From: a phage
Direction: 5' to 3' (one strand)
Length of the DNA: 64,000 bases
Sequence record: PZ452612.1
Made by a program: the position numbers and the translations under genes. The notes beneath the pieces are model-generated. The model saw only the letters and a program-made list of their open reading frames with translations, was not told the DNA's origin and ran no database searches. This document shows, piece by piece, positions 1 to 42,741 of the stretch. The number at the start of each line of letters is the position of its first letter. The stretch's first letter is position 1.

Positions 1-1098
1 TGCTAACCCGTTTTTAGATAATTGACGTTTATAATATCTTTCACAATATGTACACGTCGTCCCGCAGATTTCATTAGCACAATCGAAATCTGGATGTCTG
101 AACCACCTTTTTTCTAAAAAGCCATCTAACAAAGAGGTTTCAATATTTACTGTATGTGAAAACTCAGTTTCGTTTTCAAGAGTGAAAATAGTCTCTAAAG
201 GCTTCCACAGTTCTAACAAATTACCTTCAAACTTTTCAGAAGCGTATGCTTCAAGAACTTTCAAAATGTAGTCTGTGCTACCTGTACGTCCTGAAACTTT
301 GAATTGAGTGATACCAATATCATTATAAAGTTTCAAATCTTGAGGACGAACAAAACGAGTTCTCAACCAGTTAAATGGGTCTGTATCACGAGCTTTAATA
401 CAGTGCTGCATAGGATATCCGTTTAAGGATTTAGCATCATCAGCTGTAACATCAGTACTATGGAAAATATAGCAAGAGTCACGATAGCTACAATGTGTTG
501 TATACCCTTTACCAGCATTAGAACAGAACTCATTTACAAGAACTTCAAATATTATATTGTTCTTATTGCAAAACTCTGCTGCACGCTTCAGGAAAGAAAC
601 TGAACGGTTCTTATGAATTCCACAGCAGACCTTTTTGATATTATACTGGTCATGCAAGTATTTGATTTGAGTTACAGCATCGACATGTAGAATTGTTGAA
701 ACTTCAATCTCAATGTCTTTATTGACTTCACGAACAATTTCCATAACAACAGGGTTAGCGATAGTAATACGCCATACGCCTATTGACCAAAGATACTGAA
801 CATAATCCTGAATAGCTTTCTTCTTCCACCCAACTAGTTCTCTTTTTGAACCAGGATTTATCGTGTTGAGTGTATAGTTAAAGCAAATACCTAATTCGTT
901 ACAACGTTTAACGTAATCTTCTAACATCTTTTTGTCAACGTCAGGAAGCCTAAAATCAGGTCTGGCTGCTACAAAAGCCATTTCTCTTGTAGAGCCGTAT
1001 ACTTCGTTTATCAAGCTATTAGGATAAGTTTTATTGAGCTCTACGATTTTATCAAGAAGAGCTAAATCAAAATTCGTTCCAATTTTAAAAGTATTCAT
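1..1098 (-). CDS. Hypothetical Cys-rich protein, partial (C-terminus runs off the window start); contains CX3CX2C near the visible end
   Basis: Manual reverse-complement translation from ATG at 1098: MNTFKIGTNFDLALLDKIVELNK...DFDCANEICGTTCTYCERYYKRQLSKNGLA, open to position 1. Not in the ORF track because it is open-ended. No family recognised. Confidence 0.5.
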   Translation of the reverse strand, partial: MNTFKIGTNFDLALLDKIVELNKTYPNSLINEVYGSTREMAFVAARPDFRLPDVDKKMLEDYVKRCNELGICFNYTLNTINPGSKRELVGWKKKAIQDYVQYLWSIGVWRITIANPVVMEIVREVNKDIEIEVSTILHVDAVTQIKYLHDQYNIKKVCCGIHKNRSVSFLKRAAEFCNKNNIIFEVLVNEFCSNAGKGYTTHCSYRDSCYIFHSTDVTADDAKSLNGYPMQHCIKARDTDPFNWLRTRFVRPQDLKLYNDIGITQFKVSGRTGSTDYILKVLEAYASEKFEGNLLELWKPLETIFTLENETEFSHTVNIETSLLDGFLEKRWFRHPDFDCANEICGTTCTYCERYYKRQLSKNGLA

Positions 1099-1154
1099 TT
1101 TTTTGCATCTCACGTTAATTGATGCGATGGTTTTTGCAGGTCTTACTTAAATTA

Positions 1155-1541
1155 TTATAGATTCGGTTTATATGATTTAAATGTTTCGAATTCGCCTTTA
1201 TTCATAAGAGCTTTGAATTCGTCAGGACGCATAGCTTTGTCGTCGATAATCCAATCATATACTGGTTTATGTGTTAGCAAATTATGGTACTTCAAACCAA
1301 TGTTTTCCAAGTTCTGAATCAGACTTGGGAGAATGTCAATTGCTATACGACCAGGACCTACTGACTTCATACCGCGAGCAGTGTAAAGCGTTATGGTATG
1401 CCCTGCATCATACAGGGCATTAATAGCAGTCACCATTTCGACGTCTGGTTTGAAGTTCACGTAATCACGATTGTTATTCCACTCTGTTATACAATCATCG
1501 ACATCAAAACAAAGATTAAGCATGTTTTCTACACGGTGCAT
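1155..1541 (-). CDS. HAD-superfamily phosphatase-like protein
   Basis: DxD motif FDVDDCIT near the N-terminus and a later IIDDKA motif fit HAD motifs I and IV. Start placed at the internal Met whose ATG overlaps the upstream stop (TAATG coupling); the track ORF extends to 1556. Confidence 0.5.
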   Translation of the reverse strand: MHRVENMLNLCFDVDDCITEWNNNRDYVNFKPDVEMVTAINALYDAGHTITLYTARGMKSVGPGRIAIDILPSLIQNLENIGLKYHNLLTHKPVYDWIIDDKAMRPDEFKALMNKGEFETFKSYKPNL

Positions 1542-3226
1542 TAGATTCGTTCCCATTGATGAGTGATATCGCCACCGATTGGACGATAAGAAACACCAGT
1601 TTCTTTATCAGTTAGTACCCATTTACCAGGATTTTTTGTAATCAGAGTAGCCGTTACAGGTTCTGCTACGTCATAACTAATAGAGCCGTCCTGAAGTACA
1701 CGGCCCATGTTACGTAATTGCTTAGTCAGAAGTTCCATACCTTTATAATATGCGGCTACCGCTTTAAGTGGATTATTCTTGAAATAACCACCTAATGCAA
1801 TCCAGATAATTGCTACAGCCAAATGATGATACTCGTTAAACGAACTCATCTTTCCATATTTGTAAACTAATGGATTGATGTTAATAGTCACATTACAAGT
1901 TGTTTCGTCAATAGTAAACTGTCCCCAGGTCGGATTAGCGTTGAATTCATCATAACCTGAAACAGCATAAAGCACTTTAGCTTCATCATACAATTTTGGC
2001 CCGTAAATCTTGGTTTCGCCAAAATATCCACGAGGGTCGATAAACTTGACTTCGCCGTTATCAGTAATCATAGTATTACTGAAGTTCGGGTCACCGTGAA
2101 TAACAGAGTACTGTCCCTGAGAACGGGTATGATAACGAATAAGATGTTCTAAAGCTTGCTTCAGCATTGGCTTCAGACGTCCAATCTTAGTGTAGTTCAC
2201 GTGTGTGATTTTACCAAATGAATCAATCAATGGCTGAATGCTTTCACAACGATCAATAACTTTCGTATAGAACTCTTTAGTGAAATCACGGCGAACAGTT
2301 TCAGGACTTACAAAATAAGTGTCTGTGCTGAATTTCAGTGCATCTAAAATTGCATCAACAATTTGTGGACGAGCAAGACTTGATTTGGATTTAATATATT
2401 CAAATGCTGGCTTACCTTTAATACGTTCCATTTCAAAATTATTTTCATTTACCGAAACTAACTGAGGAACTGAATCTGATTTCACTTTCAAATACCATGA
2501 AATCTCATCTTTTTGAAGAGCTCGACCTTGTTCGGTTAACGCGAATTTAGTTACAGTTTCTTCGCCAATTTCAACTGCATTAAAACTACGATTAAGTTCA
2601 CGAACTTCATGAGCTTTTTCAAGTTTAGGCATATCACCTAAATCAATTAGATTCATAAGCTCTGATTTATTGAATGCACTGCCGTAAAGGAATTCTACGA
2701 AATCACGTCCTTTGCAGTATTCATGAATTTCCTCATCAGTAGAACCCATGTAGAATTCCCAGTCTTTGAACTGATAAATTCCTACAACATTACCGCCTGT
2801 TGAACCTACGTTAGTGATATTTTCACCATCGAAATTATATCGACATTCATCACCCTTAACATAGATTGCGTTAACATTCCAAGACCATGAACCAAAATCA
2901 GGAATAATATCACACCAGTTAACAATTACGTTATGGCCATCTAAATCTTTGTATAATTTAGCAAGAGCATAAGCAGAACCATACGCTTCATCAACTGTAC
3001 GAATAGTCACATTGAACCCTTCTTGCTCGCAATAAGCTCGAACAGTTTCAGCAAATTTTGAATGAACTACTACAATAATTTCATCTGCGCCAAGGTCAGA
3101 ATAAATTGTATACAAATTGCTCAGAATAGTGTCTTGTTTATAGTTAACAAGAACTTTTGGAATATGATGCGTTATTGGATACAAACGAGTTGCCAGTCCA
3201 GCACCAAGAATAACAGCTTTTTTCAT
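1541..3226 (-). CDS. Bifunctional sugar-1-phosphate nucleotidyltransferase (N-terminal) / sugar kinase (C-terminal, APH/choline-kinase-like)
   Basis: N-terminus MKKAVILGAGLATRLYP matches the GxGxR loop of NTP-transferases. C-terminal half has IHGDPNFSNTMITDNGEVKFIDPRGYFG, an HGD...N...ID catalytic loop typical of phosphotransferase-fold kinases. 561 aa. Confidence 0.6.
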   Translation of the reverse strand: MKKAVILGAGLATRLYPITHHIPKVLVNYKQDTILSNLYTIYSDLGADEIIVVVHSKFAETVRAYCEQEGFNVTIRTVDEAYGSAYALAKLYKDLDGHNVIVNWCDIIPDFGSWSWNVNAIYVKGDECRYNFDGENITNVGSTGGNVVGIYQFKDWEFYMGSTDEEIHEYCKGRDFVEFLYGSAFNKSELMNLIDLGDMPKLEKAHEVRELNRSFNAVEIGEETVTKFALTEQGRALQKDEISWYLKVKSDSVPQLVSVNENNFEMERIKGKPAFEYIKSKSSLARPQIVDAILDALKFSTDTYFVSPETVRRDFTKEFYTKVIDRCESIQPLIDSFGKITHVNYTKIGRLKPMLKQALEHLIRYHTRSQGQYSVIHGDPNFSNTMITDNGEVKFIDPRGYFGETKIYGPKLYDEAKVLYAVSGYDEFNANPTWGQFTIDETTCNVTININPLVYKYGKMSSFNEYHHLAVAIIWIALGGYFKNNPLKAVAAYYKGMELLTKQLRNMGRVLQDGSISYDVAEPVTATLITKNPGKWVLTDKETGVSYRPIGGDITHQWERI

Positions 3227-3267
3227 GTTGTGGTCCTCATTGGTAAGTAGGTGTATTGTACACTATT

Positions 3268-3411
3268 CTAGTTAAAGCATTCATACTTTGCTTGTAGTCC
3301 AATCATAATCCATCCAATTACAAGTGTTGGAATCATTACTGGAGCCGTTAAGCTCCAGTAGATAGTCATGACAAGCATCAATAGTAAAAGTCCTATTGTT
3401 ATTGCTTTCAT
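3268..3411 (-). CDS. Small hydrophobic protein (47 aa), translationally coupled to the upstream isomerase gene
   Basis: Manual translation MKAITIGLLLLMLVMTIYWSLTAPVMIPTLVIGWIMIGLQAKYECFN; its ATG overlaps the stop of 3408..4043 (ATGA). Sits where T4 has imm/imm.1, but no sequence match is claimed. Confidence 0.3.
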   Translation of the reverse strand: MKAITIGLLLLMLVMTIYWSLTAPVMIPTLVIGWIMIGLQAKYECFN

Positions 3412-4043
3412 TGTTCGCCTCGTAACATGGCACCTAGTGCACCGCCTGGATGGAACTTAAGAAAGTCATTAGAGGTAAATCCACGTTCAGACGAAAGGTT
3501 GATAGCAAACGTATCGATAAGCGCTAACAACAATGTAGTGGACATAGTCGGAGCCAGAGAATTCTCATCAACCTCTACCGCGATGCCTGTACAGAAAGAG
3601 TAATCAAAAAGGGCTTCATTTTCTTGCGGAATGTCTGGGTTACAATGCAACAGAATCTGTTTGACATTTGGACGAATCATTTTAAGATGCTTAGCCACGC
3701 CTATCATTTCTTCAGTCTTACCAGAACGACTAATATGAATCAACACATCATTAGGCGCAATGAATCCTGCATCACCGTGAGAATAATGCCCAGTGTTCAA
3801 GTACATACTCGGGATACCGAGTGAAGCAAATGTCTCAGAAGCTTTAGTTGCAATATTAGCATTCTTACCAACACCTGTAATAATTACTCGGCTTTCATAA
3901 TTACTAAGTCCAGGGCGTCGAAGAGTTTCTAGAATAGCATTATAACGAGCAGGGTTTTGACTAATTACTTTGGCCATAGCGGCCAAAGAAGAAGCTTGTT
4001 TTATGATTGCGTCAATAGCGATAGTAATAGGAGTAGTTTTCAT
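3408..4043 (-). CDS. SIS-domain sugar-phosphate isomerase (arabinose-5-phosphate isomerase / phosphoheptose isomerase-like)
   Basis: 211 aa with VIITGVGKNANIATKASETFASLGIP, a SIS phosphosugar-binding signature. Lies directly downstream of gene 43. Confidence 0.6.
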   Translation of the reverse strand: MKTTPITIAIDAIIKQASSLAAMAKVISQNPARYNAILETLRRPGLSNYESRVIITGVGKNANIATKASETFASLGIPSMYLNTGHYSHGDAGFIAPNDVLIHISRSGKTEEMIGVAKHLKMIRPNVKQILLHCNPDIPQENEALFDYSFCTGIAVEVDENSLAPTMSTTLLLALIDTFAINLSSERGFTSNDFLKFHPGGALGAMLRGEQ

Positions 4044-7812: not shown

Positions 7813-8775
7813 TTATTTCCAAGTCAGTTCACAGGTCAGTTGAAGAAGCATATACATAACATGTAATTCAATATTACTTGCTAGTCCATGAAACTTATTA
7901 TTTTCGCCTGCAATTTCGTAAAGCGAAATAATACTTTTACCAGGTGCAACTTGGTCATAACATTCTGAAACTAATTTATCTATGAACCATGAATAATCTG
8001 CAGCATATTTTGGAGCTAATGCACGAAGTTGTTTGATATCTTTGTTCTTCATTGCTTCGATAACATCAGAGACTGTGCCACGGTCATTAGTTACGATAGA
8101 CAGAATACCTGCATCAAGAACACCTTTAGACGAGTACTGGTCTAATTGGCCAATTGTACGACGAAAGTCTGGGAAGTTCTTTTTAACCAGAGCTGCAACA
8201 ACTTTCATATCAGCGATTTCGATATTTTCGTTCTTACAGATTTCAACCATACGATGAATCATTTTCTTCATCATCGAGATTTTATCTTCTTCAGTCGGAC
8301 GACCGAATTCTATAACTCGACAACGGCTACGTAATGGTTCAATAATTCCATCAATGTTGTTGGCAGTAATAATAATAGAACAGTTACTAGAGAATTCTTC
8401 CATAAACGTACGAAGGTGACGTTGTGATTCGGCGAGGCCACTACGGTCAAATTCATCAATAACAATAACTTTAGGCTTGCCTTCCATTGAGACTGAACGA
8501 GCGAATGCAGTTAACGGACCACGCACAAAATCAATCTTACAATCAGAACCGTTGACGAACATCATTTCGGCATTGATATCATTACATAATGCTTTTGCTA
8601 CGGTTGTTTTACCTGTACCAGGAGAAGGAGAGTGCAAAATAATATGAGGAAGTTTTCCTTTAGATACTAAAGACTTGAATGTTTCATGGTCATACGCAGG
8701 CAGAATACATTCGTCAATGGAAGAAGGACGATATTTCTGTTCTAGAATGTGTTCTTTGGAATTGATAGTAATCAT
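7813..8775 (-). CDS. 44: Clamp loader large subunit gp44 (AAA+ ATPase)
   Basis: 320 aa; Walker [11 protein letters not shown], Walker [12 protein letters not shown] motif. Confidence 0.9.
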
Positions 8776-10251: not shown

Positions 10252-11940
10252 TTATGAAACAGTCATTACAGTAAATCGTCCAACTTTGCTCATTTGAAGA
10301 TGTTGTCCATAACGTTGAGGGTCATGGTCTCTATGAGAAATAATGAACACGTTAGTATTTTGTAAACTTCCAAGAATGGTATCTATAGCCTTAACAGCCT
10401 CAGAATCTACAGCGCCGTCAAAAACTTCGTCAAGAATAAGAGTGTTGATTTTAACACCAGAGACCTTTTCAGCAATATCTCGCCATGTAAACAACAATGC
10501 GATATCGATACGTGCCTTTTCACCTTGACTAAATGAAGCATAACTAAAATCTTCACGACCACGTGATTTTATAGATTCATTGAATTCTTCATCAATAGAA
10601 AACACGTAATCGGCTTCCATGATTTTAAGATAATGGTTAATCTGCTTGTTGAACAGAGGCACATATTTTTTAATGATAGCACCTTTAATACCAGAATCTT
10701 TTAACATATCTGTGATAATACCACGATGGTATTTTTCAAGAACGATATCCGATTTTGTTTTAATGATTTTATCAAGTTCTTTTTGAAGCAAAGCTATCTC
10801 ATCGGCATGGTCGATAAATTCCGCCGAGGCTTGTTCTATTGCAGCTTTAACTTTCTTAGCTTTATCAATAGTGGCAATCATTGCTTGTTTCTTGGTACGA
10901 ATATCAGATGCAAGGTCCTGCTTAGTCTTAACATTAGCTCTATATTCGTCCACTAGGACACTCAGATTATCTCTGTGGCAGGTAAGTTGCTCGAATGAGT
11001 GATTACATTCATGAAGCTTATCGGTAATCTTAGAGACAATAGGGTCACCCTGGTGCAACTGTGATGCGCAAGTAGGACATGTACCGCCATCATGATACAT
11101 CTTAATAACTTTGTTATATGAGTCAATTTTAGATTTAATCAAGAATGCTTCTTGTCCTATCTTGTTGAATGCCTCAGTAGGGTCTTCGTCAAGAACGATA
11201 TTAAGTAGACGCTCGTTAGCTTCTTCGATTTCTGCTTTTAATGACCGAGCTTCTTTGGCTAGGTCGTCGTACATATTCTGTAGACGCGCTACATTATCAC
11301 CAGATAATTTCTTTTGACGTTCGATGTTCTCATTATAAATCTTAATTTGTTGGATAATACCATCTTTCTTGGCATCGAGAACTTGTCCCTGGGAATTAAG
11401 TTCTCGAACTTGAGACTTATTGATTTTATCCATTTCAGCGAGTGTGCCAACTTCTAATAAGTCTTCAACAAGCTTTCTGCGAGCAGGGGTGCTAAGAGCC
11501 ATGAAAGGGGTATACCCTGCCGTCCCAAGCACAACGATTTGTTTAAAAGACGCGTATGACATTCCGATGCTACGTTCAAATTCTTCTTGGAAGTCACGAC
11601 TGCTGGCAGATTCATCAAGACGAACACCGTCAACGGAGATTTCGAAAATATTGGGCTTTTGGCCACGTTTAATGAAGTATTTTTTACCATCGAATTCCAT
11701 CCAAAGCTCAACTAAGAGCTCTTTCTTGTTCGTGCTATTAATGATTTGTCCTTTCTTAACATCACGAAATGGTTTACCGAAAAGTCCGAAAGTGATGGCT
11801 TCTAACATCGTAGATTTACCACCGCCGTTTTTACCAGTGATTAATGTCTTTTGGACTTTATCTAATTGGATATCAATAGGATTCCCACCTACCGACATGA
11901 TGTTTTGATAACGAACACGATTTAATTTAAATGATTTCAT
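10252..11940 (-). CDS. 46: Recombination endonuclease subunit gp46 (SbcC/Rad50-like ATPase)
   Basis: 562 aa; Walker A GKNGGGKST, long coiled-coil middle, C-terminal LILDEVFD signature region. Confidence 0.9.
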   Translation of the reverse strand: MKSFKLNRVRYQNIMSVGGNPIDIQLDKVQKTLITGKNGGGKSTMLEAITFGLFGKPFRDVKKGQIINSTNKKELLVELWMEFDGKKYFIKRGQKPNIFEISVDGVRLDESASSRDFQEEFERSIGMSYASFKQIVVLGTAGYTPFMALSTPARRKLVEDLLEVGTLAEMDKINKSQVRELNSQGQVLDAKKDGIIQQIKIYNENIERQKKLSGDNVARLQNMYDDLAKEARSLKAEIEEANERLLNIVLDEDPTEAFNKIGQEAFLIKSKIDSYNKVIKMYHDGGTCPTCASQLHQGDPIVSKITDKLHECNHSFEQLTCHRDNLSVLVDEYRANVKTKQDLASDIRTKKQAMIATIDKAKKVKAAIEQASAEFIDHADEIALLQKELDKIIKTKSDIVLEKYHRGIITDMLKDSGIKGAIIKKYVPLFNKQINHYLKIMEADYVFSIDEEFNESIKSRGREDFSYASFSQGEKARIDIALLFTWRDIAEKVSGVKINTLILDEVFDGAVDSEAVKAIDTILGSLQNTNVFIISHRDHDPQRYGQHLQMSKVGRFTVMTVS

Positions 11941-12185: not shown

Positions 12186-12420
12186 CCTCGATACATGCTT
12201 CAGCCATTTTAAGAATAGAGCCAGGAGTATCGTTGTCCATTATATTAAAGCTAAATTCAATAGCCCAGTCGGTACAGACATGAACGGCTTTAACTTCATT
12301 GCCTTCAACGCGTAATGGCTCAATCCAATACTTGATAGTGTTCTCGAATCCATCATCATCTTTAACGTCTATTTCAACTTCAAGCCCAAGCCCGGCATTG
12401 TTAAATTCATCTAAAGTCAT
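12163..12420 (-). CDS. Hypothetical acidic protein (46.2-like position)
   Basis: 85 aa ORF, overlaps the gp47 stop. Confidence 0.45.
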   Translation of the reverse strand: MTLDEFNNAGLGLEVEIDVKDDDGFENTIKYWIEPLRVEGNEVKAVHVCTDWAIEFSFNIMDNDTPGSILKMAEACIEDAYNDED

Positions 12421-13436
12421 TGTGTTGCCTCAATATAAAGTTCGTTAGAATATTTGACCAGCGCTTCTCTGTCTTCGTCTGAGATATCTGGAATCGCGTC
12501 AATATATTCTTTAATGATATCTTGAAGTGATTTAATCTCGATTTCCTGGTCGTCATCAGATTCAACACTGTTATCAACTTTAGAAACCATACGAAGAGAG
12601 TGAACTACTTTTTCAAGTTCAGATTCAAACTTAGTCAACTCTGAATCAATTTCTGATACTATAACACGTACGGCTAGATTAGTATAATCAGAATAATTGA
12701 TTTTGCCTTTAAACGGATAAGTGATTCTTCGATGCCATGTTGTTTCATTAGGAATAAATTCCATACGTTCAACATCAGTGTCAAATACCCAGAATCCACG
12801 CGGGTCGTTCTCATCACCTGCAGTAAGGGTCCACGGTGTTCCAATATATTTGACGTTAGCAGCTTCAGAGATTGTGTGGAAGTGGCCTGACCAGACTTGT
12901 TTATAAGTCTTTAAGAAATCAGGTTCAAGCCCATGAGACTTCATCCCTTTATAGAAATAAAAGCCGTTCAGTTCCCAGTGCCCAACACAATACGCAGCAG
13001 AAGAAGTCTTGATGTGCTCTAAGATTTCACCTGTATTTTCTTCACACATCCATGGAACGATATCAATCAGACATCCGTCAAAATCTACAGTAGTCGGATG
13101 CTCATAAATAGTAAAGTTTTCAAATTGAGTTAACAATTCAGAAACAGTGTTAGGTGTTATTGTATTCTTAAACGCCATGTCATGGTTTCCTATCGTGACA
13201 TGAACGTGAATGCCTGCTTTAGAAATCATATCAACGATTTCACGATTGAATTCCATTGTACGATGTGTTATTGCTTTACGGACGTCAAACCAATCACCGT
13301 ACTGAATCCAAGTTTTAATCCCGTGTTTCTTAGAGTATTCAATTGCTTGTCGAATACCATCACGTTGAATATCTTGAACCCATGGGTCGTCTTGTTTGAC
13401 TCCGATATGGAAGTCGCCTAAGTGCAAAATTTTCAT
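12417..13436 (-). CDS. 47: Recombination endonuclease subunit gp47 (SbcD/Mre11-like phosphoesterase)
   Basis: MKILHLGDFHIG...GNHD...GHFH metallophosphatase motifs; 339 aa as in T4 gp47. Confidence 0.9.
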   Translation of the reverse strand: MKILHLGDFHIGVKQDDPWVQDIQRDGIRQAIEYSKKHGIKTWIQYGDWFDVRKAITHRTMEFNREIVDMISKAGIHVHVTIGNHDMAFKNTITPNTVSELLTQFENFTIYEHPTTVDFDGCLIDIVPWMCEENTGEILEHIKTSSAAYCVGHWELNGFYFYKGMKSHGLEPDFLKTYKQVWSGHFHTISEAANVKYIGTPWTLTAGDENDPRGFWVFDTDVERMEFIPNETTWHRRITYPFKGKINYSDYTNLAVRVIVSEIDSELTKFESELEKVVHSLRMVSKVDNSVESDDDQEIEIKSLQDIIKEYIDAIPDISDEDREALVKYSNELYIEATQ

Positions 13437-13478
13437 ATTATTTCCTCATTAGTTAATTCATTTTATCATCCGTTTATA

Positions 13479-13507
13479 AAGCAAAAAAGGAACTCCGAAG
13501 AGTTCCT
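13479..13507 (-). terminator. Rho-independent terminator (AGGAACUC-UUCG-GAGUUCCU followed by UUUUUUGC)
   Basis: Perfect 8-bp stem, UUCG loop and a 6-U tract read on the minus strand, directly after the stop of the small ORF 13506..13679. Confidence 0.6.
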
Positions 13508-13679
13508 ATCCACATAGTACACCGTACAGAGGCTCATTTGAACTTTTAAATCGAATTGGCTTGTACGTAATAGTTCCTTCGGCTTTAGCTTTATCATAAG
13601 ACTCTTTAAAACGTCTCATTCTTTCTGCTTTGCCTTTACGGATTTTATCGAAATTTTCAGAAGTCGGGATGTTCGTCAT
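13506..13679 (-). CDS. Small basic protein (57 aa)
   Basis: Manual translation MTNIPTSENFDKIRKGKAERMRRFKESYDKAKAEGTITYKPIRFKSSNEPLYGVLCG; GAGG Shine-Dalgarno upstream; terminator follows. Confidence 0.35.
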   Translation of the reverse strand: MTNIPTSENFDKIRKGKAERMRRFKESYDKAKAEGTITYKPIRFKSSNEPLYGVLCG

Positions 13680-13718
13680 GCATAAGCACCTCTCAGAAAA
13701 TGCCTAAATCAATTTCTC

Positions 13719-13940
13719 TCATCGTTTCCACCATTTCTTAACTTGAAATGAATCGGCCCACACGAGTTGTTTTGGGTCTGCCTTTACAATAGGCGGACAA
13801 ATTTCTGTAATAGAACCGTCGTGATATTCCTTTTCAGAAATTTTAACACAAAGAGGACCTCCCAATTTAAGGGTGAACCCTGCGTTCAGCTTCAGACGTT
13901 TAAACTTTGTTTGAACTAGCGCCATTAATGATGTCCTCAA
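13719..13940 (-). CDS. Hypothetical protein
   Basis: 73 aa track ORF in the 55-47 interval. Confidence 0.3.
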   Translation of the reverse strand: MRTSLMALVQTKFKRLKLNAGFTLKLGGPLCVKISEKEYHDGSITEICPPIVKADPKQLVWADSFQVKKWWKR

Positions 13941-14223
13941 TAGCCTGACGAGTAGTAACCCACTGGATTTTAATTAACTTGTCATTGTATGGTTGTCGTA
14001 GAATATCCCGAGATTTCTTAATAGCATATTCGTAAGCTTCGAAGTTGTTTTGAATTGCTGCTTCTTGAGCATGAGCATAAAGACGGTTTAGTTCAAAACG
14101 ATTCTTTTTAAGAATCTTTTCGGATTTTTTACGTGCTTCAGCTTCATTTTTCTTTTGGATTTCTTGTAGCATTTTAGCTACTGCATCTTCTGCTTCTTTA
14201 TTTTCAATAATCTCGGTAGTCAT
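13900..14223 (-). CDS. Hypothetical protein
   Basis: 107 aa ORF, charged, coiled-coil-like. Confidence 0.4.
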   Translation of the reverse strand: MTTEIIENKEAEDAVAKMLQEIQKKNEAEARKKSEKILKKNRFELNRLYAHAQEAAIQNNFEAYEYAIKKSRDILRQPYNDKLIKIQWVTTRQAIEDIINGASSNKV

Positions 14224-14224
14224 A

Positions 14225-14440
14225 TTATCTCATTAAATTAAAATAAAAACGTCCATCCTCTTCAATACAGAACTCATACTCAACTGGAGTCCCATTTATC
14301 GAAAATGACACGTCATGTGGGTTCAAAGGGTCGATGTCAAAATTAATTTTAAATTCACGACCCAACAGTTTTACCAAATAAGGGATTGCTTCGTCAAAAG
14401 GTTCTTCTAAGTAGTTAGAGATGTCAATTGTCATCCTCAT
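14225..14440 (-). CDS. Hypothetical protein
   Basis: Track ORF 14225..14518 trimmed to an internal Met so that it does not run deep into gene 55. Confidence 0.35.
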
Positions 14441-14999
14441 ATAAAAAATCCAAACTAGGCGAATCGCTAACAACTTCCTTCTTTTCAGCCCCAGGAGCTT
14501 TATAAGCGGATTCTTCATAATGCGTCATTTTATCGTAGATGTCTTGAATAAACGTTTCATCTACTAACGCTACCATATCATCGTCATGACTGTCGTAGAC
14601 ATTATGAACGAAGTAACTATATTTCTTTGCAACTTCCTTACGTTCTTTTTTGATACGTTGGACAAAAGCATTAAAACAAGCTCGAGTTATGTATGCATGT
14701 GGGTTATTGTACTTAGTTTCGTCGAAATTATGAAGTCCCTTAATAGAGGCTTCAATCCCATCTGCAATCATCTCCTGCTTCCAAGACTGGGTATATCCTG
14801 AAAAGTTGAAACGTTTGGACAGGCCTTCGGCGATAAGCATAATTGCTAAACCGATGGTATCATTCTGACGAATAATTTTGTTTGGGTCTTTATTATTTAA
14901 GAGCTCCTTTTTCCACTCGATTATAGCGGCGAGAAGCTCTTTATTATTCACATAGTTATTTTTAGGTTTTTGTTCAGTCATAAGTACCTCTTGGCTCAA
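14424..14999 (-). CDS. 55: Late-transcription sigma factor gp55
   Basis: ...[62 protein letters not shown]... matches T4 gp55 as recalled. Confidence 0.95.
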
Positions 15000-15053
15000 T
15001 TCATAGGTCTATTATATCATAATATTTAGAGACCTATCTTAAAGCACGAGATA

Positions 15054-20701: not shown

Positions 20702-21171
20702 TTTAAACTCTTTCTAAGCTGCTTTTTGAATGAAGCTATTAATTGTGTTTTAGTATCAGATTCATTATATTCAAATCCTCTTTGAAGCATCTCAGTCATC
20801 ATTTCCTCTTTACCTAGTCTTGAGAACTCTTTAGTTTTGTCTGGAACAAAATTAGGATGGATATTATTATCAGAATAATCTTGTTTCAAATAAGCAAGAA
20901 GAGCTTCAAGCCATTCGAGGTAATCAACGTTTTGACCTTTAAGACCAGAACGGTTGAACTTATGCTTCATTTGACCTTCTGCTGCATTGCACAGGTTACA
21001 TAGTAAACCACGAACCTTACCAGCTTTTGGCCCGTTTAATTCATGGTCGTGGTCAAGATGGTTACCTTGAACATCAGGGTCTAATTCACGGTGGCAAATA
21101 GGACACTTACCATTCTGTGCATCATAAAATTTTTGTTTTTCTTCTTTATATTTTGCGCCTGATAATAACAT
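20698..21171 (-). CDS. 49: Endonuclease VII (Holliday junction resolvase) gp49
   Basis: MLLSGAKYKEEKQKFYDAQNGKCPICHRELD...HLDHDHELNG matches T4 endo VII as recalled; 157 aa. Confidence 0.9.
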   Translation of the reverse strand: MLLSGAKYKEEKQKFYDAQNGKCPICHRELDPDVQGNHLDHDHELNGPKAGKVRGLLCNLCNAAEGQMKHKFNRSGLKGQNVDYLEWLEALLAYLKQDYSDNNIHPNFVPDKTKEFSRLGKEEMMTEMLQRGFEYNESDTKTQLIASFKKQLRKSLK

Positions 21172-23135: not shown

Positions 23136-23440
23136 TATAATGTTCTCTCAAATTTGTGGAAGCATTTACGGCATTTCAATTTCAAGTTATCACTGGTCCA
23201 GTTAACCAGTTGGACTTGGATAGTTCCACATTCCGGACATGGATGTTTTGCTGCCGATTTGGCAGCATTTTCACGTCGTTCAACCATTTTCATGATTTCG
23301 TTCCATGCTGGAGGAACGAACTCTTCTTCACCGTGGATTTTATCTCGCTGAACAAATTCAATCTTTGAACTATCGTCAATAAACTTAACCAAGCGGTGAT
23401 TAGTGTTCATATCAATATCCTCTAAAAGACGTAGTTTCAT
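23135..23440 (-). CDS. Zinc-ribbon protein
   Basis: CPECG...CRKC C2C2 arrangement in a 101 aa ORF. Confidence 0.5.
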   Translation of the reverse strand: MKLRLLEDIDMNTNHRLVKFIDDSSKIEFVQRDKIHGEEEFVPPAWNEIMKMVERRENAAKSAAKHPCPECGTIQVQLVNWTSDNLKLKCRKCFHKFERTL

Positions 23441-24384
23441 TATAACACCTCAATGGCATTTCGTAAACCATCCGCTTTCGCATTCAGAGCTTTTAACGAT
23501 TTAGTCTGTTCTTTAATCTGGGCTTCGACTTCTTTCAGACGAGATTTGAGATATTCGCGTTCTTCGGCCATGATATCGACCTTTTCTGCTTTAGGTTCTT
23601 TAATAGGCTTAAACACATTAGGGTTCTTCAGTTTAATTTTAATTCGAGAACTGAATAACATTGAACCGTTATCTTCGGTTTCGTCGAACATTTCAACAAC
23701 ATCCATAGTCTGTAACATCATGCGAAGTTTATAAGACAGAGAACGAATGGTTTTGTTGCGCTTATTAATTTCTTCGGCTTTCATGGTACCGAGATTACGT
23801 GAGTAATAATAAGGAACCTGGATATCAATTGATAACGATGCGTTACCATTACCAGTTGGTTTGAATACTGCAGTAACCCAATCTTTAACATGAACTTTAT
23901 TTGTACGACCATCGCCGCCTGTGAATAATTTACGTGAATGTTTAAAAAGCATATTCACTTGGTTATTGAATTCACAAGCAAATTTATCAGCAAATTTAGT
24001 TTCAGGAATGGTGGAGAACCAATCAGCTAAATGAGTCTTTTTAACATCATTAACAATAGTGAATTCAACCAAATCGGTTTTAGATGTCACAGATTTAATA
24101 AAGCTCGGTTTCATAAAGTTTTTAATGTTATCACGAGCCACAGTAGAAGATAATAAACGAGAACGTTTGAACCATTGAAGCAACGTCCCTAATGAATGAG
24201 AATATGCATTTTGAGTATCTTTACAGATATGATTTTCTTGGCCTGTGTATGTACCAAAATCGCGAAGAATACCACTTACTACATCTCGGTGTGGAACATC
24301 AAATCCTAATGAACCAGAAGCACGTTGGGCATGAACGTTAGCGATAAGACCTGCAAAGTATTCAATGTAATGTGAACGTGTCAT
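23440..24384 (-). CDS. Hypothetical protein with C-terminal coiled coil
   Basis: 314 aa; C-terminus REYLKSRLKEVEAQIKEQTKSLKALNAKADGLRNAIEVL; preceded by the GTTTAC-N18-TATAAT module at 24413..24442. Confidence 0.5.
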   Translation of the reverse strand: MTRSHYIEYFAGLIANVHAQRASGSLGFDVPHRDVVSGILRDFGTYTGQENHICKDTQNAYSHSLGTLLQWFKRSRLLSSTVARDNIKNFMKPSFIKSVTSKTDLVEFTIVNDVKKTHLADWFSTIPETKFADKFACEFNNQVNMLFKHSRKLFTGGDGRTNKVHVKDWVTAVFKPTGNGNASLSIDIQVPYYYSRNLGTMKAEEINKRNKTIRSLSYKLRMMLQTMDVVEMFDETEDNGSMLFSSRIKIKLKNPNVFKPIKEPKAEKVDIMAEEREYLKSRLKEVEAQIKEQTKSLKALNAKADGLRNAIEVL

Positions 24385-24412
24385 AATATTTTCCTCTCGT
24401 TAAGATAGATTC

Positions 24413-24442
24413 ATTATACTCCAACCATCCTTGGTTGTAAAC
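24413..24442 (-). promoter_or_regulatory. Early-type promoter: GTTTAC -35, 18-bp spacer containing hairpin CAACCA-AGGA-TGGTTG, TATAAT -10
   Basis: Minus strand reads GTTTACAACCAAGGATGGTTGGAGTATAAT, 28 nt upstream of the ATG at 24384. Confidence 0.55.
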
Positions 24443-24446
24443 TATT

Positions 24447-25406
24447 TTATGATTTTAACGCATTCATTGCGTTAAAAAGTTTAGAATACTGCAACTGGAG
24501 ATTCGTTACAACACTTTGAGCATCACGAAGCTTAGCTTGTGCTTTGTCAAGTTCAACAGACAGTTGGTCCATAGTGGCCTTGATTTGATTGTAATGGTAA
24601 TCTTCGGCCGGAAGAAGGTCATTAGAAACATTTAGTTTTACTGCAGACAGTTTGCACACATTTGGCAAACCTTTAAACATTGATTTACCCGAAGTAGAAT
24701 AAGCACTTAGGACTTCGGCCTGTTCAATTGGGGTCCCAGTAAGCGATGCTTCAAACAATGCATTTTCCTTTTTAAGATTTTGATAATATTCGGAGTCTTT
24801 GTGCCACCATGGCGCAGGAACCTTTTTACCAATAGATACACGAGCCTGGATAGCGATATGGCCCTTATTCTTGATAAGGTCGATAATATTAAGCTCACGA
24901 GAATAAATCGCTTTAATCTGGTGGATATTATCACCTAAAACTTCCAACGCTTGGTGGAATACACGAGCGACATTATCATTCTTAGGTTTATACGTAAGAG
25001 TGAACTCATTCTCACTGATAACCATGATTTCCAACTTATCGTAAGTATATTTCAAATGTTTCATGTTAATTGCTTGAGGACGAATACGAGAAGCAATGGC
25101 CATCAGATTGTTAAGGTTATTCCGGAACTGCTTAGCGAAATATTGTCCTTCACCGCCAATACAAAAATTACGAAGTTTCTGTTTGGCCAATAAACGGCTG
25201 AACTCACCATTTTTAATGAACTCTTTAACGGGTGTGTTAGTAACGCATTCAAATTGAGTAAACTTACGAGAAGTAATCCCATAATATGAACAGATTTCCT
25301 CAATCTCTTCAGGAGTCTTTACAGGCATACGGATAGGATTAGGTCCTGGAGTATATGCGTTCGAGGTAAATTCTTTGATAAGTTCTCTACGTGTAATAAA
25401 AGCCAT
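24447..25406 (-). CDS. Hypothetical protein with C-terminal coiled coil
   Basis: 319 aa; C-terminus ...MDQLSVELDKAQAKLRDAQSVVTNLQLQYSKLFNAMNALKS; its 5' region contains the same 27-nt module. Confidence 0.5.
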   Translation of the reverse strand: MAFITRRELIKEFTSNAYTPGPNPIRMPVKTPEEIEEICSYYGITSRKFTQFECVTNTPVKEFIKNGEFSRLLAKQKLRNFCIGGEGQYFAKQFRNNLNNLMAIASRIRPQAINMKHLKYTYDKLEIMVISENEFTLTYKPKNDNVARVFHQALEVLGDNIHQIKAIYSRELNIIDLIKNKGHIAIQARVSIGKKVPAPWWHKDSEYYQNLKKENALFEASLTGTPIEQAEVLSAYSTSGKSMFKGLPNVCKLSAVKLNVSNDLLPAEDYHYNQIKATMDQLSVELDKAQAKLRDAQSVVTNLQLQYSKLFNAMNALKS

Positions 25407-25461
25407 TTTATATTCCTCATGTTGAAAAATTTATTATACTCCAACCATCCTTGGTTGTACA

Positions 25462-26457
25462 TCATTCCTTAAGAAGTTTTACTACCTGAATAAGATTAGC
25501 TCGTTCTGTTTTATTTTTACCGTTTAAGCCTGCTAATCGTGAGATTTCATCGTCAGTCTGTTGAATAGTTACATTAAGTTCGTTAATCAAAGCTTCAAAG
25601 TATTTGATTTGCTCAGCATGTTTTGATTCAAATTTCTGAACCGGAATAACGTCTTGGTTCAGTTCATCAATAAGGTCTTTAAGAGCATCTTCTTGGTTGA
25701 TATCATATTCAACTTCTTTTATTTCTTCAACGAGCTCGTCTTTATATCTAACGTCTTTTAGTCCTGGAGCTGGTCCTGAAATCTCTTCTTTAAGAGTACA
25801 AACATACCCAATACGGTATCCAACGCCGTCTCGCTTGATATCAACTTCGTCGATAAATCCACAATGTTTAAGTCCAGAGCCGATTATGTCAAAATATCCT
25901 TGACGTCGTCCTTCAAACGTTACACGAACTACTAAGACGGTTTTGCCACCGACCTTTTGAAGCTCACATTTATAAAAGTTTGTTGAACCTGAATAACATG
26001 GATGAGTTTTAAAGTTCATCTGACGATCTAGGCCCATTTGTAAACGTGCTGTTACGGCCATAAAACGTGTTTGGTTCTCGTTAAGATGAGCAACAATCCA
26101 TTTCAAAGGCATTTTACCCTGTTCACGGCCGAACAAATCAGTACGTCCTAGATTACGCAGGATGTTGTTAGAGTTAATCATCGACAGAACGTTAAGTTTA
26201 TTCAGCGCGCTGAAGATTCCATCAGCCATTGATTTTCCATAACCTTTACACGCTTTAATAAGTGCTCGCGGCAGATTAGTATAGATTTCAGACGGCATAT
26301 GAAAATCAAATTTACTAGTCAGTAATTGATGAACTTGGATAGCAATTTGCTCATAATTAAGTGCTCTGCGATCGTTATGGTCTTTAAACCATACTTTAAT
26401 CTGTGAAGCACATAAACCGTTAATTTCATGTTTTACCGCATCAGATGTAATGCTCAT
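25462..26457 (-). CDS. Hypothetical protein with C-terminal coiled coil
   Basis: 331 aa; acidic linker then coiled coil. Confidence 0.5.
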   Translation of the reverse strand: MSITSDAVKHEINGLCASQIKVWFKDHNDRRALNYEQIAIQVHQLLTSKFDFHMPSEIYTNLPRALIKACKGYGKSMADGIFSALNKLNVLSMINSNNILRNLGRTDLFGREQGKMPLKWIVAHLNENQTRFMAVTARLQMGLDRQMNFKTHPCYSGSTNFYKCELQKVGGKTVLVVRVTFEGRRQGYFDIIGSGLKHCGFIDEVDIKRDGVGYRIGYVCTLKEEISGPAPGLKDVRYKDELVEEIKEVEYDINQEDALKDLIDELNQDVIPVQKFESKHAEQIKYFEALINELNVTIQQTDDEISRLAGLNGKNKTERANLIQVVKLLKE

Positions 26458-26519
26458 AACTATTTCCTCGGATTGAATTGGAACTCAAAACCATTATAAC
26501 CCGTCCTTGGGTAAAGCGT

Positions 26520-27047
26520 TTATGCGTGAACCGACTTTAAACGTTCTTCAAATTTCCGAAGAGTACTAATACGTTCTGCTTTCTGTTTTGTATAGTTTGC
26601 AATACGTTCTGAAGTGAGAGCGTATCGTTCGTTTACTGTTTCTTTCATGAAGTCAGGGATTTCACGAGAAGCTTTAATTTCATCAAACTTATCGAGTACT
26701 GCCTGGTCTTCAGCAATTAAATTTTCGTACATCTCGATATCTTTCTTGATGAAGTCGATATCTTCCTGGGTTACTTTGGATAAACGAGATGCTTTATCCT
26801 TTTTGTACTGCTCGTTAGTTTCACGAGACCAGAATAATGTACGTTTTTTGTTAGTGTTTTTGTAGACTTCCACAATTCCAACTGAATCGATGATAACAAT
26901 CCAATTCCAGCGAGATTTGAAAATCTGACCTCCGTCCACGGTAATCTCGTTACCATAAGCAATGTCATTAAAGAACTTACTTTGTGCTTCGGATTTAAAT
27001 TTACCGTCGTTATAATTTACCAGGTTGAAAATATCTTTAGCGTTCAT
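26520..27047 (-). CDS. Hypothetical protein
   Basis: 175 aa ORF. Confidence 0.45.
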   Translation of the reverse strand: MNAKDIFNLVNYNDGKFKSEAQSKFFNDIAYGNEITVDGGQIFKSRWNWIVIIDSVGIVEVYKNTNKKRTLFWSRETNEQYKKDKASRLSKVTQEDIDFIKKDIEMYENLIAEDQAVLDKFDEIKASREIPDFMKETVNERYALTSERIANYTKQKAERISTLRKFEERLKSVHA

Positions 27048-27074
27048 GTTTTACCTCCAGTAGTTGATAGGTCT

Positions 27075-27103
27075 ATAATAACATAACCATAGACCTTGTA
27101 AAC
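27075..27103 (-). promoter_or_regulatory. Early-type promoter (GTTTAC -35, TATTAT -10) overlapping palindrome AGGTCTA...TAGACCT
   Basis: Minus strand reads GTTTACAAGGTCTATGGTTATGTTATTAT upstream of 26520..27047. Confidence 0.45.
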
Positions 27104-27105
27104 AA

Positions 27106-27393
27106 CTAAAAGAAACTTTTTTCGGTATTTTTTCCACTGAACCAAACAGACTTCGGGATTTTTTGTAATTTTTCAGATTTAAGTTTCTCTTCCTGTTCTT
27201 TCTTATATACACCCTTGTCGTACTGGAGCATCTCTATGACATTCTTTTGCAAACGATCTAAGGTAATTAAGGCTTTAGTTTTTCCTTTCAAGGAAGAGTC
27301 CTGGCGAACCTCCTCGCTATATTGCATTGTAGAACTAACCATACGATGAGCATAGAGTTCGACTGCGGCTTTAATTTTTTGCATAAAATCCAT
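27106..27393 (-). CDS. Hypothetical protein
   Basis: 95 aa ORF; the overlapping 27288..27494 ORF is treated as an alternative, less likely frame. Confidence 0.35.
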   Translation of the reverse strand: MDFMQKIKAAVELYAHRMVSSTMQYSEEVRQDSSLKGKTKALITLDRLQKNVIEMLQYDKGVYKKEQEEKLKSEKLQKIPKSVWFSGKNTEKSFF

Positions 27394-27531
27394 AACATAT
27401 CCTCTTTGATTTGTACATCATTATTTTTAAATATTTCTATGCCCTCAGTAGGTTCCTGGTGTCCTTCTTTGAGGTAAGCCATATGATTATTCATCTTTAT
27501 GGCTTTTGTTACCTCAGAACTTCCTATAAGC

Positions 27532-28533
27532 TTATTTCAGTAAAGTAACTTCCGAGATTTCTTCCCAACCATCTTTATCAGTTGAAATAAAATCTGCTAC
27601 ATAAAGAGCCGTACGTAATGATACATTGCGAAGACGAGATACGTTAGCCTTCATCCAGGACAATGCTTTATACGTTTCTGCATCCGTCAGACCACGTTTC
27701 TGCATCATGTCAGTAGATAATATTACATCTTCAACTCGAACCATAATCTCTTCATTAGAGTGTACTCCAAGGTCGAGATACACTGAACGAGATACTAAAG
27801 CTTGAAGGTGTGGAGCAAGTTTCGAACCCCGTTCTAACTCTTTATCGATATCAACGTTTGTAATGAAAACGATAGTACCTTCAAACTCAAATTCTTTATC
27901 AATACCCTTATCCTCGAGATAAGATGACGCAGTGCTCCAACAAACTTTGCGTTTATCTCCGGTATCTAATGCTGCTTTAAGAAGGTTCAGGATGTCCATA
28001 TCTGAGAATACGTCAACGTCATCGATTAAGAGAACGCTGTCTTCATCACGGTTGAGCCAAAGTTGTTCGTAAAGGCCAATACCAGAGATTTTACCATTAA
28101 TGCTTTTGTATTTGATGAAACCATTATCATTAGCATTATTAAGTGCTTTATCCAGAGAATACGTCTTACCAATACCAGCTGCACCTGAAATAATGAGTGA
28201 ACGAATTTTGCCATCGATAATGCCATTCGTCATCATGTTCATTACTTTAAAGCGTTTGTTGATACGGGTTTTCATATCTTCAGTGCTTTCAACAACTGCA
28301 ACTGGTGATGTCTCAACTCCTTCCATTACGATGTCTGATTTGAAGACCCATACTCCACGTTCAGAACCATCAATCATAACGAAAATTTTACCATCACCTA
28401 AGTGGGAACATTCAGGATTAAGCTTTGCCGGGAACCAGGTCTTTGTGGCAACATAAGAACCAGAGATTTCGTTATTACGATAGATACCTTTTTTGATTTG
28501 AACGTTGAACATTTTATTCTCCAATTTACTCAT
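27532..28533 (-). CDS. P-loop NTPase (AAA-like ATPase)
   Basis: Walker A ISGAAGIGKTYS and Walker B VLLIDDVD in the C-terminal two thirds of a 333 aa ORF. Confidence 0.55.
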   Translation of the reverse strand: MSKLENKMFNVQIKKGIYRNNEISGSYVATKTWFPAKLNPECSHLGDGKIFVMIDGSERGVWVFKSDIVMEGVETSPVAVVESTEDMKTRINKRFKVMNMMTNGIIDGKIRSLIISGAAGIGKTYSLDKALNNANDNGFIKYKSINGKISGIGLYEQLWLNRDEDSVLLIDDVDVFSDMDILNLLKAALDTGDKRKVCWSTASSYLEDKGIDKEFEFEGTIVFITNVDIDKELERGSKLAPHLQALVSRSVYLDLGVHSNEEIMVRVEDVILSTDMMQKRGLTDAETYKALSWMKANVSRLRNVSLRTALYVADFISTDKDGWEEISEVTLLK

Positions 28534-33524: not shown

Positions 33525-34003
33525 TCAACAATCACAATTTCTAGTTTAGTGGAATACGTATCTAAAATCTCTTCGATGACATCCCAGTTTCCGCCACCGA
33601 TACCTGCACCAATTCTTGGCATATAAATTACAGGCTTTGTTATCTTATTCTTTCCGAATTCATTTAATTCTATTATACAATTCATTAAAGCAGAGTACTC
33701 AAAATTAGGTCCCGGCTCAAACTGCGTATAAAGATTAAAGCAATAAGCTTTATGGGTCTTAAAATATTTTTCATAAACCGAATAAGTCCCGAGTTTAGAC
33801 TCGTCTCCGAATTCGGTTTGAAGTTTATCGGCTTCCAGAATTTTTGGATAAGCCTTTGCTAATTGTCCTGCCACACCGGCGCCCATTGTATGAAAACAAT
33901 TACACCCATGAGCAATATTATTACCTTTAGAAAACAGGGCGACAATATCGCCCTTGATATAGTTTTTAATCACTTGCTGCAAGTCCTCTAGTATAAGAGT
34001 CAA
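33506..34003 (-). CDS. Macro-domain protein (ADP-ribose binding/processing fold)
   Basis: NIAHGCNCFHTMGAGVAGQLAKAYP and MPRIGAGIGGGNW resemble the two glycine-rich loops of macro domains; 165 aa. Confidence 0.55.
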   Translation of the reverse strand: MTLILEDLQQVIKNYIKGDIVALFSKGNNIAHGCNCFHTMGAGVAGQLAKAYPKILEADKLQTEFGDESKLGTYSVYEKYFKTHKAYCFNLYTQFEPGPNFEYSALMNCIIELNEFGKNKITKPVIYMPRIGAGIGGGNWDVIEEILDTYSTKLEIVIVDWEPLL

Positions 34004-35376: not shown

Positions 35377-35717
35377 TACTCTTTGAAAGGAATTAACTTT
35401 TTAACTGCTTTAGATACTTCGTCACGAACCTGGTGGAAGTTCTTGAGCTGTTCAAGGCGTTGTTCGTAATACGCAATCTCATCTTCTTCAAGACAATCGT
35501 CAGCGTCTTCTTTCAGATATGCCTTGTACTCATTAAAGAGGGCCCATAGGCGGTTCTCAAAGTCATCAAGGCTTTGAATTTTCTTGTGCTTCGGAACAAG
35601 GCCAAAAGGATTGCTTTCAGTTATGCGTCGAGATGCTTCATAATGAGTTCCAAAGCCTGATAGGATTTGAGCCATTAGTATTTTTCCTCTGGTTGAAATA
35701 CCGCACGACAAGCCCAC
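35376..35717 (-). CDS. Hypothetical protein
   Basis: 113 aa ORF. Confidence 0.4.
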
Positions 35718-35920
35718 ATACTAGCTTCCTTTAGGCGTTCTTTAGCACAGTTCAATTGGGACAAAGCTGTCAAAGCTTCAGGAGTATTCGCAGACAACGC
35801 TTCTTCCGCCAAGGCATCGAAAATAAGCCCTAATCGAACTTCTGCATCTTTAATAGCGTTCACTTTACCGATTTTATCATCGGTATGCGGCTTGTAGCCT
35901 TTGATGTCTTCAATCGACAT
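35675..35920 (-). CDS. Hypothetical protein
   Basis: Track ORF 35675..36088 trimmed to the internal Met [18 protein letters not shown]... Confidence 0.35.
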
Positions 35921-36134
35921 AAGGAATTTCCTCATCGGTGGCAAGGTCATATTCGACCAATTGGATAGGCTCATTAATACCATATCCACGTACAGTGATA
36001 TCGGTTGTCGGATATTTTCCAGTAATATCACCCATTCTAAATGCTTCAGTGAATGATTGCTCGCCTGAGCAACTAAACCAGGCGGCAAAACATTTTAAAA
36101 CATCTTCAGACCCTTCTATAATCAATTTAGCCAT
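35910..36134 (-). CDS. Hypothetical acidic protein
   Basis: 74 aa ORF. Confidence 0.4.
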   Translation of the reverse strand: MAKLIIEGSEDVLKCFAAWFSCSGEQSFTEAFRMGDITGKYPTTDITVRGYGINEPIQLVEYDLATDEEIPYVD

Positions 36135-36496: not shown

Positions 36497-36502
36497 ATAA
36501 CC

Positions 36503-41297: not shown

Positions 41298-41325
41298 AAT
41301 ATTCTCCTCATGTTTTAATAGGACT

Positions 41326-41355
41326 ACTATAACATAGTCCTATCATCATGTAAAC
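41326..41355 (-). promoter_or_regulatory. Early-type promoter (GTTTAC -35, 18-bp spacer, TATAGT -10) inside palindrome ATAGGACTA-N8-TAGTCCTAT
   Basis: Minus strand reads GTTTACATGATGATAGGACTATGTTATAGTAGTCCTAT. Confidence 0.5.
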
Positions 41356-41974: not shown

Positions 41975-42051
41975 TTTATTTCCTTGAGGTTGTTTATTTG
42001 ATAGGATGATAGTATCACACCATCATACTTATGTAAACTGTTTTGTGAAAA

Positions 42052-42737
<686 letters not shown>

Positions 42738-42741
42738 TTTA

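Follow-up and report, generated by a model that had tools for sequence, protein, structure and literature searches.

Absence of the alpha-glucosyltransferase gene between genes 47 and 55 of Escherichia coli O157 typing phage 6, a Mosigvirus

In phage T4 the alpha-glucosyltransferase gene (a-gt), which encodes a protein of 400 amino acids (aa), lies between genes 47 and 55. In the 64,000-nucleotide stretch of phage DNA analysed here (sequence record PZ452612.1, hereafter the window), the same slot contains four small genes and no a-gt. The window matches nucleotides 43750-107749 of E. coli O157 typing phage 6 (NC_041864.1) exactly over 64 kb, and the remainder of that record could be joined to it with exact overlaps to a total of 160,570 bp. 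Typing phage 6 belongs to the genus Mosigvirus (RB69-like, Tevenvirinae), a relative of the T-even phages. No homolog of a-gt, or of the other glucosyltransferase genes b-gt and ba-gt, was found in its genome, which carries instead a set of genes nearly identical to the cytosine modification genes of RB69. Very probably, this is the ordinary Mosigvirus slot, from which a-gt is absent since the lineage arabinosylates 5-hydroxycytosine (5hoC). An explanation of this kind is already known: this is how the slot normally looks, and how it is annotated, in a genus that has been well studied, and the facts at genus level are in print in papers of 2018 to 2026.

Which of the restriction enzymes, CRISPR systems, DNA glycosylases (Brig1) and type IV nucleases (GmrSD/BrxU) can attack a phage depends on how its cytosine is hypermodified, and so does the possibility of cutting, cloning or sequencing its DNA by standard methods. 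Placing an O157 typing phage with the arabinosyl-5-hydroxycytosine type rather than the glucosyl-hydroxymethylcytosine type is thus of practical use, without introducing a new concept.

The interval between genes 47 and 55

All features of this interval lie on the minus strand. Its lower boundary is gene 47 (12417..13436), coding for a 339-aa SbcD-like recombination nuclease subunit (PHROG 100, E=1.6e-135) with 76% identity to T4 gp47 and 100% to RB69 gp47. The upper boundary is gene 55 (14424..14981), coding for the late sigma factor (185 aa; 91% identity to T4 gp55; PHROG 234, E=3.9e-68). Directly downstream of gene 55 are four small collinear genes, homologs of T4 a-gt.2 to a-gt.5 and annotated under these names in a sister record. 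The a-gt.5 homolog (14225..14440; DUF5491, PF17595, E=5.8e-13; 47% identity to T4 a-gt.5) is annotated with 71 aa, has 97 aa in the program-made list of open reading frames (ORFs), and shares 17 nt with the end of gene 55, the same overlap as in T4. It is followed by the homologs of a-gt.4 (13900..14223; 107 aa; DUF2654, PF10849, E=1e-27; 58-61% identity to T4), a-gt.3 (13719..13925; 68 aa as annotated, the 73-aa ORF reaching 13940 from a TTG; 69% identity to T4; PHROG 1648) and a-gt.2 (13506..13679; 57 aa; DUF5486, PF17588, E=4.5e-28; PHROG 2140; 76% identity to T4). The names of these genes reflect their position beside a-gt in T4 and nothing more. On the plus strand of 13437-14423 the longest ORF has 50 aa and is without support, and an Rfam scan of the window gave no match.

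The gene order of the T4 interval is 47, 47.1, a-gt (PF11440), mobB, a-gt.2, a-gt.3, a-gt.4, a-gt.5, 55. Relative to T4, the window thus lacks about 2.2 kb, comprising 47.1, a-gt and the homing endonuclease gene mobB. An earlier note on this DNA had reported that the roughly 400-aa a-gt of T4 is missing between genes 47 and 55, and that only ORFs of 57, 73, 107 and about 72 aa and a terminator are found there. The coordinates, the ORFs and the comparison with T4 bear this out, the sizes match, and the terminator is present as a sequence feature, a hairpin with a U-run.

The a-gt.2 stop codon and the start of gene 47 are separated by 69 nt, which are fully taken up, in 5' to 3' order on the coding strand, by a terminator hairpin, a MotA box with its -10 element, and a ribosome-binding site before the gene 47 start codon. 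Inspection of this spacer revealed no remnant of a-gt or of any other gene. The predicted intrinsic terminator (13488..13507, read from 13507 to 13488), which overlaps the a-gt.2 stop codon, consists of an 8-bp stem closed by a UUCG tetraloop and followed by six U residues (AGGAACUC-UUCG-GAGUUCCU, then U6). It folds with an energy of -13.9 kcal/mol (z = -2.9), a stability matched by 2 of 200 shuffled sequences. The candidate T4-type middle promoter (13460..13483), identified by pattern matching, is formed by the MotA box TGCTTTA, an 11-nt spacer and the -10 element TAAAAT, and leads into gene 47, whose Shine-Dalgarno sequence GAGGA was read from the sequence at 13443..13447. The entire 69-nt spacer, including the terminator, is identical base for base in RB69. 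T4, Mineola, CC31 and dhaeg have analogous hairpins in the corresponding position, and an equivalent module of hairpin and promoter precedes 47 or 47.1 in T4, being more diverged in dhaeg, CC31 and Mineola. The module may terminate transcription after a-gt.2 and restart it into gene 47 from a MotA-type middle promoter.

For the middle-promoter pattern (TGCTTYA-N11-13-TANNNT), the window has 10 matches where 1.5 are expected, a more than six-fold enrichment over shuffles, none of 100 of which reached 10, and the sites are mostly on the coding strand of early or middle genes. The genome of typing phage 6 has an annotated MotA homolog. Eight of the ten sites are on the minus strand, for instance those at 3255-3279, 10766-10790, 20764-20789 and 33667-33692, and together the ten provide a candidate middle-promoter map of this part of the genome. 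T4 has two terminator/MotA-promoter modules, similar to each other, on either side of mobB and a-gt: the first follows a-gt.2 and the second follows a-gt (10681-10731 and 8586-8624 of the T4 stretch examined). The single module of the window resembles both. Such repeated modules could mediate the gain or loss of a mobB/a-gt cassette.

Arabinosylation genes and cytosine chemistry

The empty slot by itself is weak evidence on glucosylation, because the Karamvirus CC31 also lacks a-gt at this place and yet has homologs of b-gt and ba-gt (PMC6024577). Stronger evidence in the same window is provided by the arabinose-nucleotide genes at 1-4043, which were overlooked in the earlier note. They belong to the genes for the supply of nucleoside diphosphate (NDP)-arabinose, which lie in the 42-43 interval; the window includes four genes of this group, all on the minus strand. 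The first (1..1098, the last 63 nt being outside the window) codes for a peptidase-U32-like protein, ortholog of RB69p050 (99.2% identity; PF01136, E=7e-11 on the full protein), whose role in the pathway is an unproven proposal (PMC13326640 Table 1). The second (1155..1541) codes for a small HAD-like sugar phosphatase, ortholog of RB69p051 (97.7% identity), which matches the capsule biosynthesis phosphatase model TIGR01689 below its cut-off (E=2e-13). The third (1541..3226) codes for a bifunctional protein of 561 aa, ortholog of RB69p052:53, with an N-terminal sugar-1-phosphate nucleotidyltransferase domain (PF00483, E=1.3e-9) and weak kinase-like matches at residues 354-409. It is 99-100% identical to both RB69 fragments, and its role has been proposed before (PMC13326640 and PMC6024577). 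The fourth (3408..4043) codes for a KpsF/GutQ-like arabinose-5-phosphate isomerase, 100% identical to RB69p055, with a match to PHROG 5670 'arabinose 5-phosphate isomerase' (E=4e-116) and matches below the curated cut-offs to TIGR00393 (E=2e-32) and KdsD (E=7e-31). In T4, imm and imm.1 occupy the interval between 42 and 43 that is filled here by the arabinose-pathway genes, and their homologs are found beyond gene 41, at 36415-37093 of typing phage 6.

The other modification genes lie outside the window. Gene 42, placed there also by the earlier note, has its homolog at 42692-43408 of typing phage 6, ending 342 nt before the window start. This homolog matches PF00303, the thymidylate-synthase family, and is 99.2% identical to RB69p048 and merely 25% identical to T4 gp42, whereas the neighbouring replication genes show 60-91% identity to T4. 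The same note's statement that b-gt is outside the window is misleading, as the genome has no b-gt at all. In the place of T4 b-gt, beside the gene 42 homolog, are a 299-aa protein, GT1 (41793-42692; 99-100% identity to RB69p046:47), and a thymidylate-kinase-like protein (99.5%). A 366-aa homolog of ORF003c, located between rIIA and gene 39, is identical to its RB69 counterpart in 365 of 366 residues and matches the solved structure 9iqz, a 'glycosyltransferase subfamily 4-like' protein, with E=8e-250. A literature search on the codes 9IQZ and 9IR0 of the Protein Data Bank (PDB) returned irrelevant chemistry papers only. The Pfam, NCBIfam and PHROG annotation assigns neither of the two transferases to a named family. 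When both were compared by hhalign, as single sequences or as a two-sequence alignment, with the a-gt of T4 and Mineola and with T4 b-gt, the probabilities were below 1%, values that say little either way, since the positive control of b-gt against a-gt, both known GT-B enzymes, failed too. All modification genes are 97.5-100% identical to those of RB69 and without frameshifts, and the gene set of Mosigvirus type is present, with a homolog of the 5-hydroxy-dCMP (5hodCMP) synthase, two candidate arabinosyltransferases and the NDP-arabinose supply genes. The orthologs of RB69p052+p053 and of p046+p047 are one uninterrupted ORF each (561 aa and 299 aa). The splitting of these ORFs in the RB69 record has been attributed to sequencing errors (PMC13326640), a view that is supported by their being whole in typing phage 6.

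The chemistry is documented for close relatives. Thomas et al. (2018) found by BlastP no homolog of a-gt, b-gt or ba-gt in RB69, reported arabinose and not glucose in its DNA, proposed ORF003c as a GT-B arabinosyltransferase, and counted O157 typing phage 3 among the phages with pathway genes of at least 97% identity (PMC6024577). In the revised chemistry of Lee et al. (2026), cytosine is fully replaced in RB69 by mono- and di-arabinosylated 5-hydroxycytosine, RB69 gp48 is a flavin-associated 5hodCMP synthase, and gp46:47 and gp3 are proposed as the transferases and gp50-55 as the NDP-arabinose pathway (PMC13326640). The Durham Collection paper describes 5-ara-dC and 5-ara-ara-dC in the Mosigvirus NP, with the same two gene locations (PMC13390438). 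The nucleosides of RB69 and NP were established by liquid chromatography-mass spectrometry and nuclear magnetic resonance (PMC13326640, PMC13390438).

Typing phage 6 DNA probably shares the chemistry of RB69. The gene 42 homolog would then be a flavin-associated synthase making 5-hydroxy-dCMP and not hydroxymethyl-dCMP, and cytosine in the DNA would be replaced by 5-hydroxycytosine and then given one or two arabinose residues. Arabinose would be added by the two GT-B-type arabinosyltransferases, one in the b-gt slot and the other between rIIA and gene 39, with the division of the steps between them being one that we infer. The donor would be NDP-arabinose made by the enzymes encoded between genes 42 and 43. 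The lineage would have no a-gt because it does not make the substrate of this enzyme: T4 a-gt acts on hydroxymethylcytosine (hmC) in DNA, and RB69 gp48 makes 5hodCMP rather than 5-hydroxymethyl-dCMP (PMC13326640). In T4, by contrast, gp42 makes hmC, which is then glucosylated. The genome-wide absence of a-gt, the full arabinosylation gene set and the chemistry of RB69 and NP all argue for the conclusion of the earlier note that the DNA is not alpha-glucosylated.

Several points weigh against this explanation. The chemistry was demonstrated in RB69 and NP and is extended to typing phage 6 by its sequence likeness to them. Published work did not reconstitute in vitro the arabinosylation of 5hoC DNA by the first transferase (PMC13326640). 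GT1 gave no Pfam, NCBIfam or PDB sequence match, and its assignment as a glycosyltransferase relies on published structure predictions. Formally, sequence searches would also miss a glucosyltransferase that is not homologous to the known ones.

Sugar modification might instead have been lost altogether, leaving an unglycosylated modified cytosine or plain cytosine. Standard hidden Markov model searches detected no Pfam or NCBIfam glycosyltransferase domain in the proteins of the phage. However, the arabinose-nucleotide and transferase genes are intact and obviously conserved, the ORFs that are split in the RB69 record are whole here, the solved structure matched by the ORF003c homolog is GT4-like, and the DNA of RB69 and NP is fully arabinosylated (PMC13326640, PMC13390438). 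Such a loss is therefore very unlikely.

Glucosyltransferase searches and distribution of a-gt in related phages

The genome was searched for glucosyltransferase genes outside the slot by tblastn (E<=1) and by phmmer (E<=10) on the 661 stop-to-stop ORFs of at least 60 aa, using T4 a-gt, the a-gt of Klebsiella phage Mineola (66% identity to that of T4), T4 b-gt, RB32 ba-gt, 47.1 and mobB as queries. As a check of the queries, T4 a-gt scored 862 bits on PF11440, and b-gt and ba-gt matched their own Pfam families (PF09198 for beta-glucosyltransferase, and PF20691, TAGT, for the beta-alpha-glucosyltransferase of T2/T6). None of the six queries had a match in the 160,570-bp genome of typing phage 6, and a-gt, b-gt, ba-gt, 47.1 and mobB were likewise without match in its sister, typing phage 3. 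The genome thus contains no a-gt-like protein of about 400 aa of the PF11440 family (AGT), the location between a-gt.2 and 47 being empty, and no member of PF09198 or PF20691. Nine other large unannotated ORFs carried no glycosyltransferase domain. GT-B-type glycosyltransferases are present elsewhere in the genome and are not orthologs of a-gt. The earlier note had called for a genome-wide search for GT-B glucosyltransferase homologs, and these searches found no homolog of a-gt, b-gt or ba-gt. The GT-B enzymes that do exist are by published evidence arabinosyltransferases, so that the claim itself is unaffected.

These searches bear directly on the idea that a-gt was relocated and that hmC is still alpha-glucosylated through a homolog elsewhere in the genome. 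The gene order does differ from that of T4 in other places, such as the displaced imm and imm.1, and two GT-B-type enzymes are encoded outside the slot. Nevertheless, two divergent a-gt queries found no match in the whole genome by either method. Among the phage-collection records, 657 contain a-gt, and their identity bands fit by number Tequatrovirus (~504) and Klebsiella/Raoultella phages (~143), with none left for the 147 Mosigvirus records. In RB69, moreover, the gene 42 homolog makes 5hoC and not hmC (PMC13326640), and the sugar in the DNA is arabinose and not glucose (PMC6024577). We regard a relocated a-gt as very improbable.

An empty slot might also be specific to typing phage 6, either as a deletion in this isolate or as an assembly artefact, and the window does lack 8.1 kb that are present in typing phage 3. 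This is scarcely credible for the slot, as O157 typing phages 3, 6 and 13 share the 2.6 kb around the 47-55 interval at 100% identity, and dozens of other, independent isolates have it at 98.8-99.2%, all of them classed as Mosigvirus. The region 12400-15000 is covered to at least 80% in one piece by 147 phage records, and 147 records have a gp55 at least 99% identical to that of the window. Furthermore, the 69-nt spacer is a complete unit of terminator, promoter and ribosome site without gene remnant, RB69 has the same layout and spacer, and a-gt is also missing at this place in Dhakavirus, Karamvirus and Krischvirus.

RB69, the type member of Mosigvirus, has the order 47, a-gt.2, a-gt.3, a-gt.4, a-gt.5, 55, with slot proteins 95-100% identical to those of typing phage 6. 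The two differ in that p046/p047 and p052/p053 are split in the RB69 record and in the 8.1-kb deletion that typing phage 6 has elsewhere. T4 shares the flanking genes, the four small genes, the 17-nt overlap of a-gt.5 and 55 and the terminator/MotA-promoter module before 47, and differs by its extra ~2.2 kb with 47.1, a-gt, mobB and the second module. For T4 alpha-glucosyltransferase, PMC6024577 cites the structure PDB 1XV5. Gene 55, small a-gt.x genes, a terminator-like hairpin and gene 47 follow one another, with no large gene between them, in Dhakavirus dhaeg, Karamvirus CC31 and Krischvirus MIZ3, Krischvirus having two small ORFs only in the slot. These genera differ from Mosigvirus by other modification chemistries, Dhakaviruses being predicted as 5hoC/arabinose types (PMC13326640). 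Klebsiella phage Mineola (Jiaodavirus) has the same slot and flanks, and unlike typing phage 6 it has a-gt between a-gt.2 and the terminator preceding 47, without mobB or 47.1. That one of the small a-gt.x proteins replaces a-gt, as their names and their place in the slot might suggest, has practically nothing to recommend it, as they have 57-107 aa, far below the size of a two-domain GT-B enzyme, belong to DUF5486, DUF2654 and DUF5491, are found together with a-gt in T4 and Mineola, and are independent of glucosylation, being present in phages of three different modification types.

The distribution of a-gt thus appears patchy: the slot is conserved in other respects, and the gene is limited to Tequatrovirus and Jiaodavirus. 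A neighbour-joining tree of concatenated gp46, gp47 and gp55 (999 ungapped columns) gave the topology (Krischvirus, ((Dhakavirus, (T4, typing phage 6)), (CC31, Mineola))), with bootstrap values of 100% for T4 with typing phage 6 and 93% for CC31 with Mineola. Each of the a-gt-bearing lineages, T4 and Mineola, is sister to a lineage without a-gt, which calls for a single early gain with three losses, or for two gains at one site. Between Mineola and T4, the identity of a-gt (66%) is close to that of gp46 (67%), gp47 (71%), gp55 (77%) and the concatenated proteins (71%). That a-gt has diverged about as far as its flanks speaks mildly for an ancestral presence with repeated loss rather than a double gain. 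The empty slot might accordingly be the scar of a modification switch, a-gt having been ancestral at the site between a-gt.2 and the module and lost independently in Mosigvirus, Dhakavirus and Karamvirus as each adopted a different cytosine chemistry, although we lean slightly against this full scenario. The comparison of loss and gain is the sole part of the analysis that is not already in print.

Other features of the window and of typing phage 6

Compared to typing phage 3, the window lacks an 8.1-kb segment (NC_041863.1, 75523-83638), which contains about 15 small ORFs along with the genes for tRNA-Met and tRNA-Arg. The window itself retains no tRNA gene, as a scan of it for tRNAs came out empty. 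The junction is located at 41292-41345, and a search with it identified typing phage 6 as the sole record sharing this deleted arrangement. The deletion looks like the result of a recombination between repeated cassettes, because the 54-bp stretch at the junction matches both flanks of the missing segment. The junction sequence, with a hairpin (GGACTA..TAGTCC) and with a ribosome site immediately 5' of an ATG, resembles the promoter/stem-loop cassettes described in T4-type phages.

An unannotated protein of 326 aa is encoded at 27532-28512 on the minus strand, with weak matches, all below the Pfam cut-offs, to P-loop/STAND-like NTPase and helix-turn-helix domains. It belongs to a run of four hypothetical proteins of about 315-330 aa (23440-28512), one of which is a DUF7235 protein. 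Outside the window, at 35406-36056 of typing phage 6, a 216-aa protein that is annotated as 'hypothetical protein', and not by name, matches Pfam AdfA (anti-DarT factor A), an anti-defence gene, over its full length with E=1e-119.

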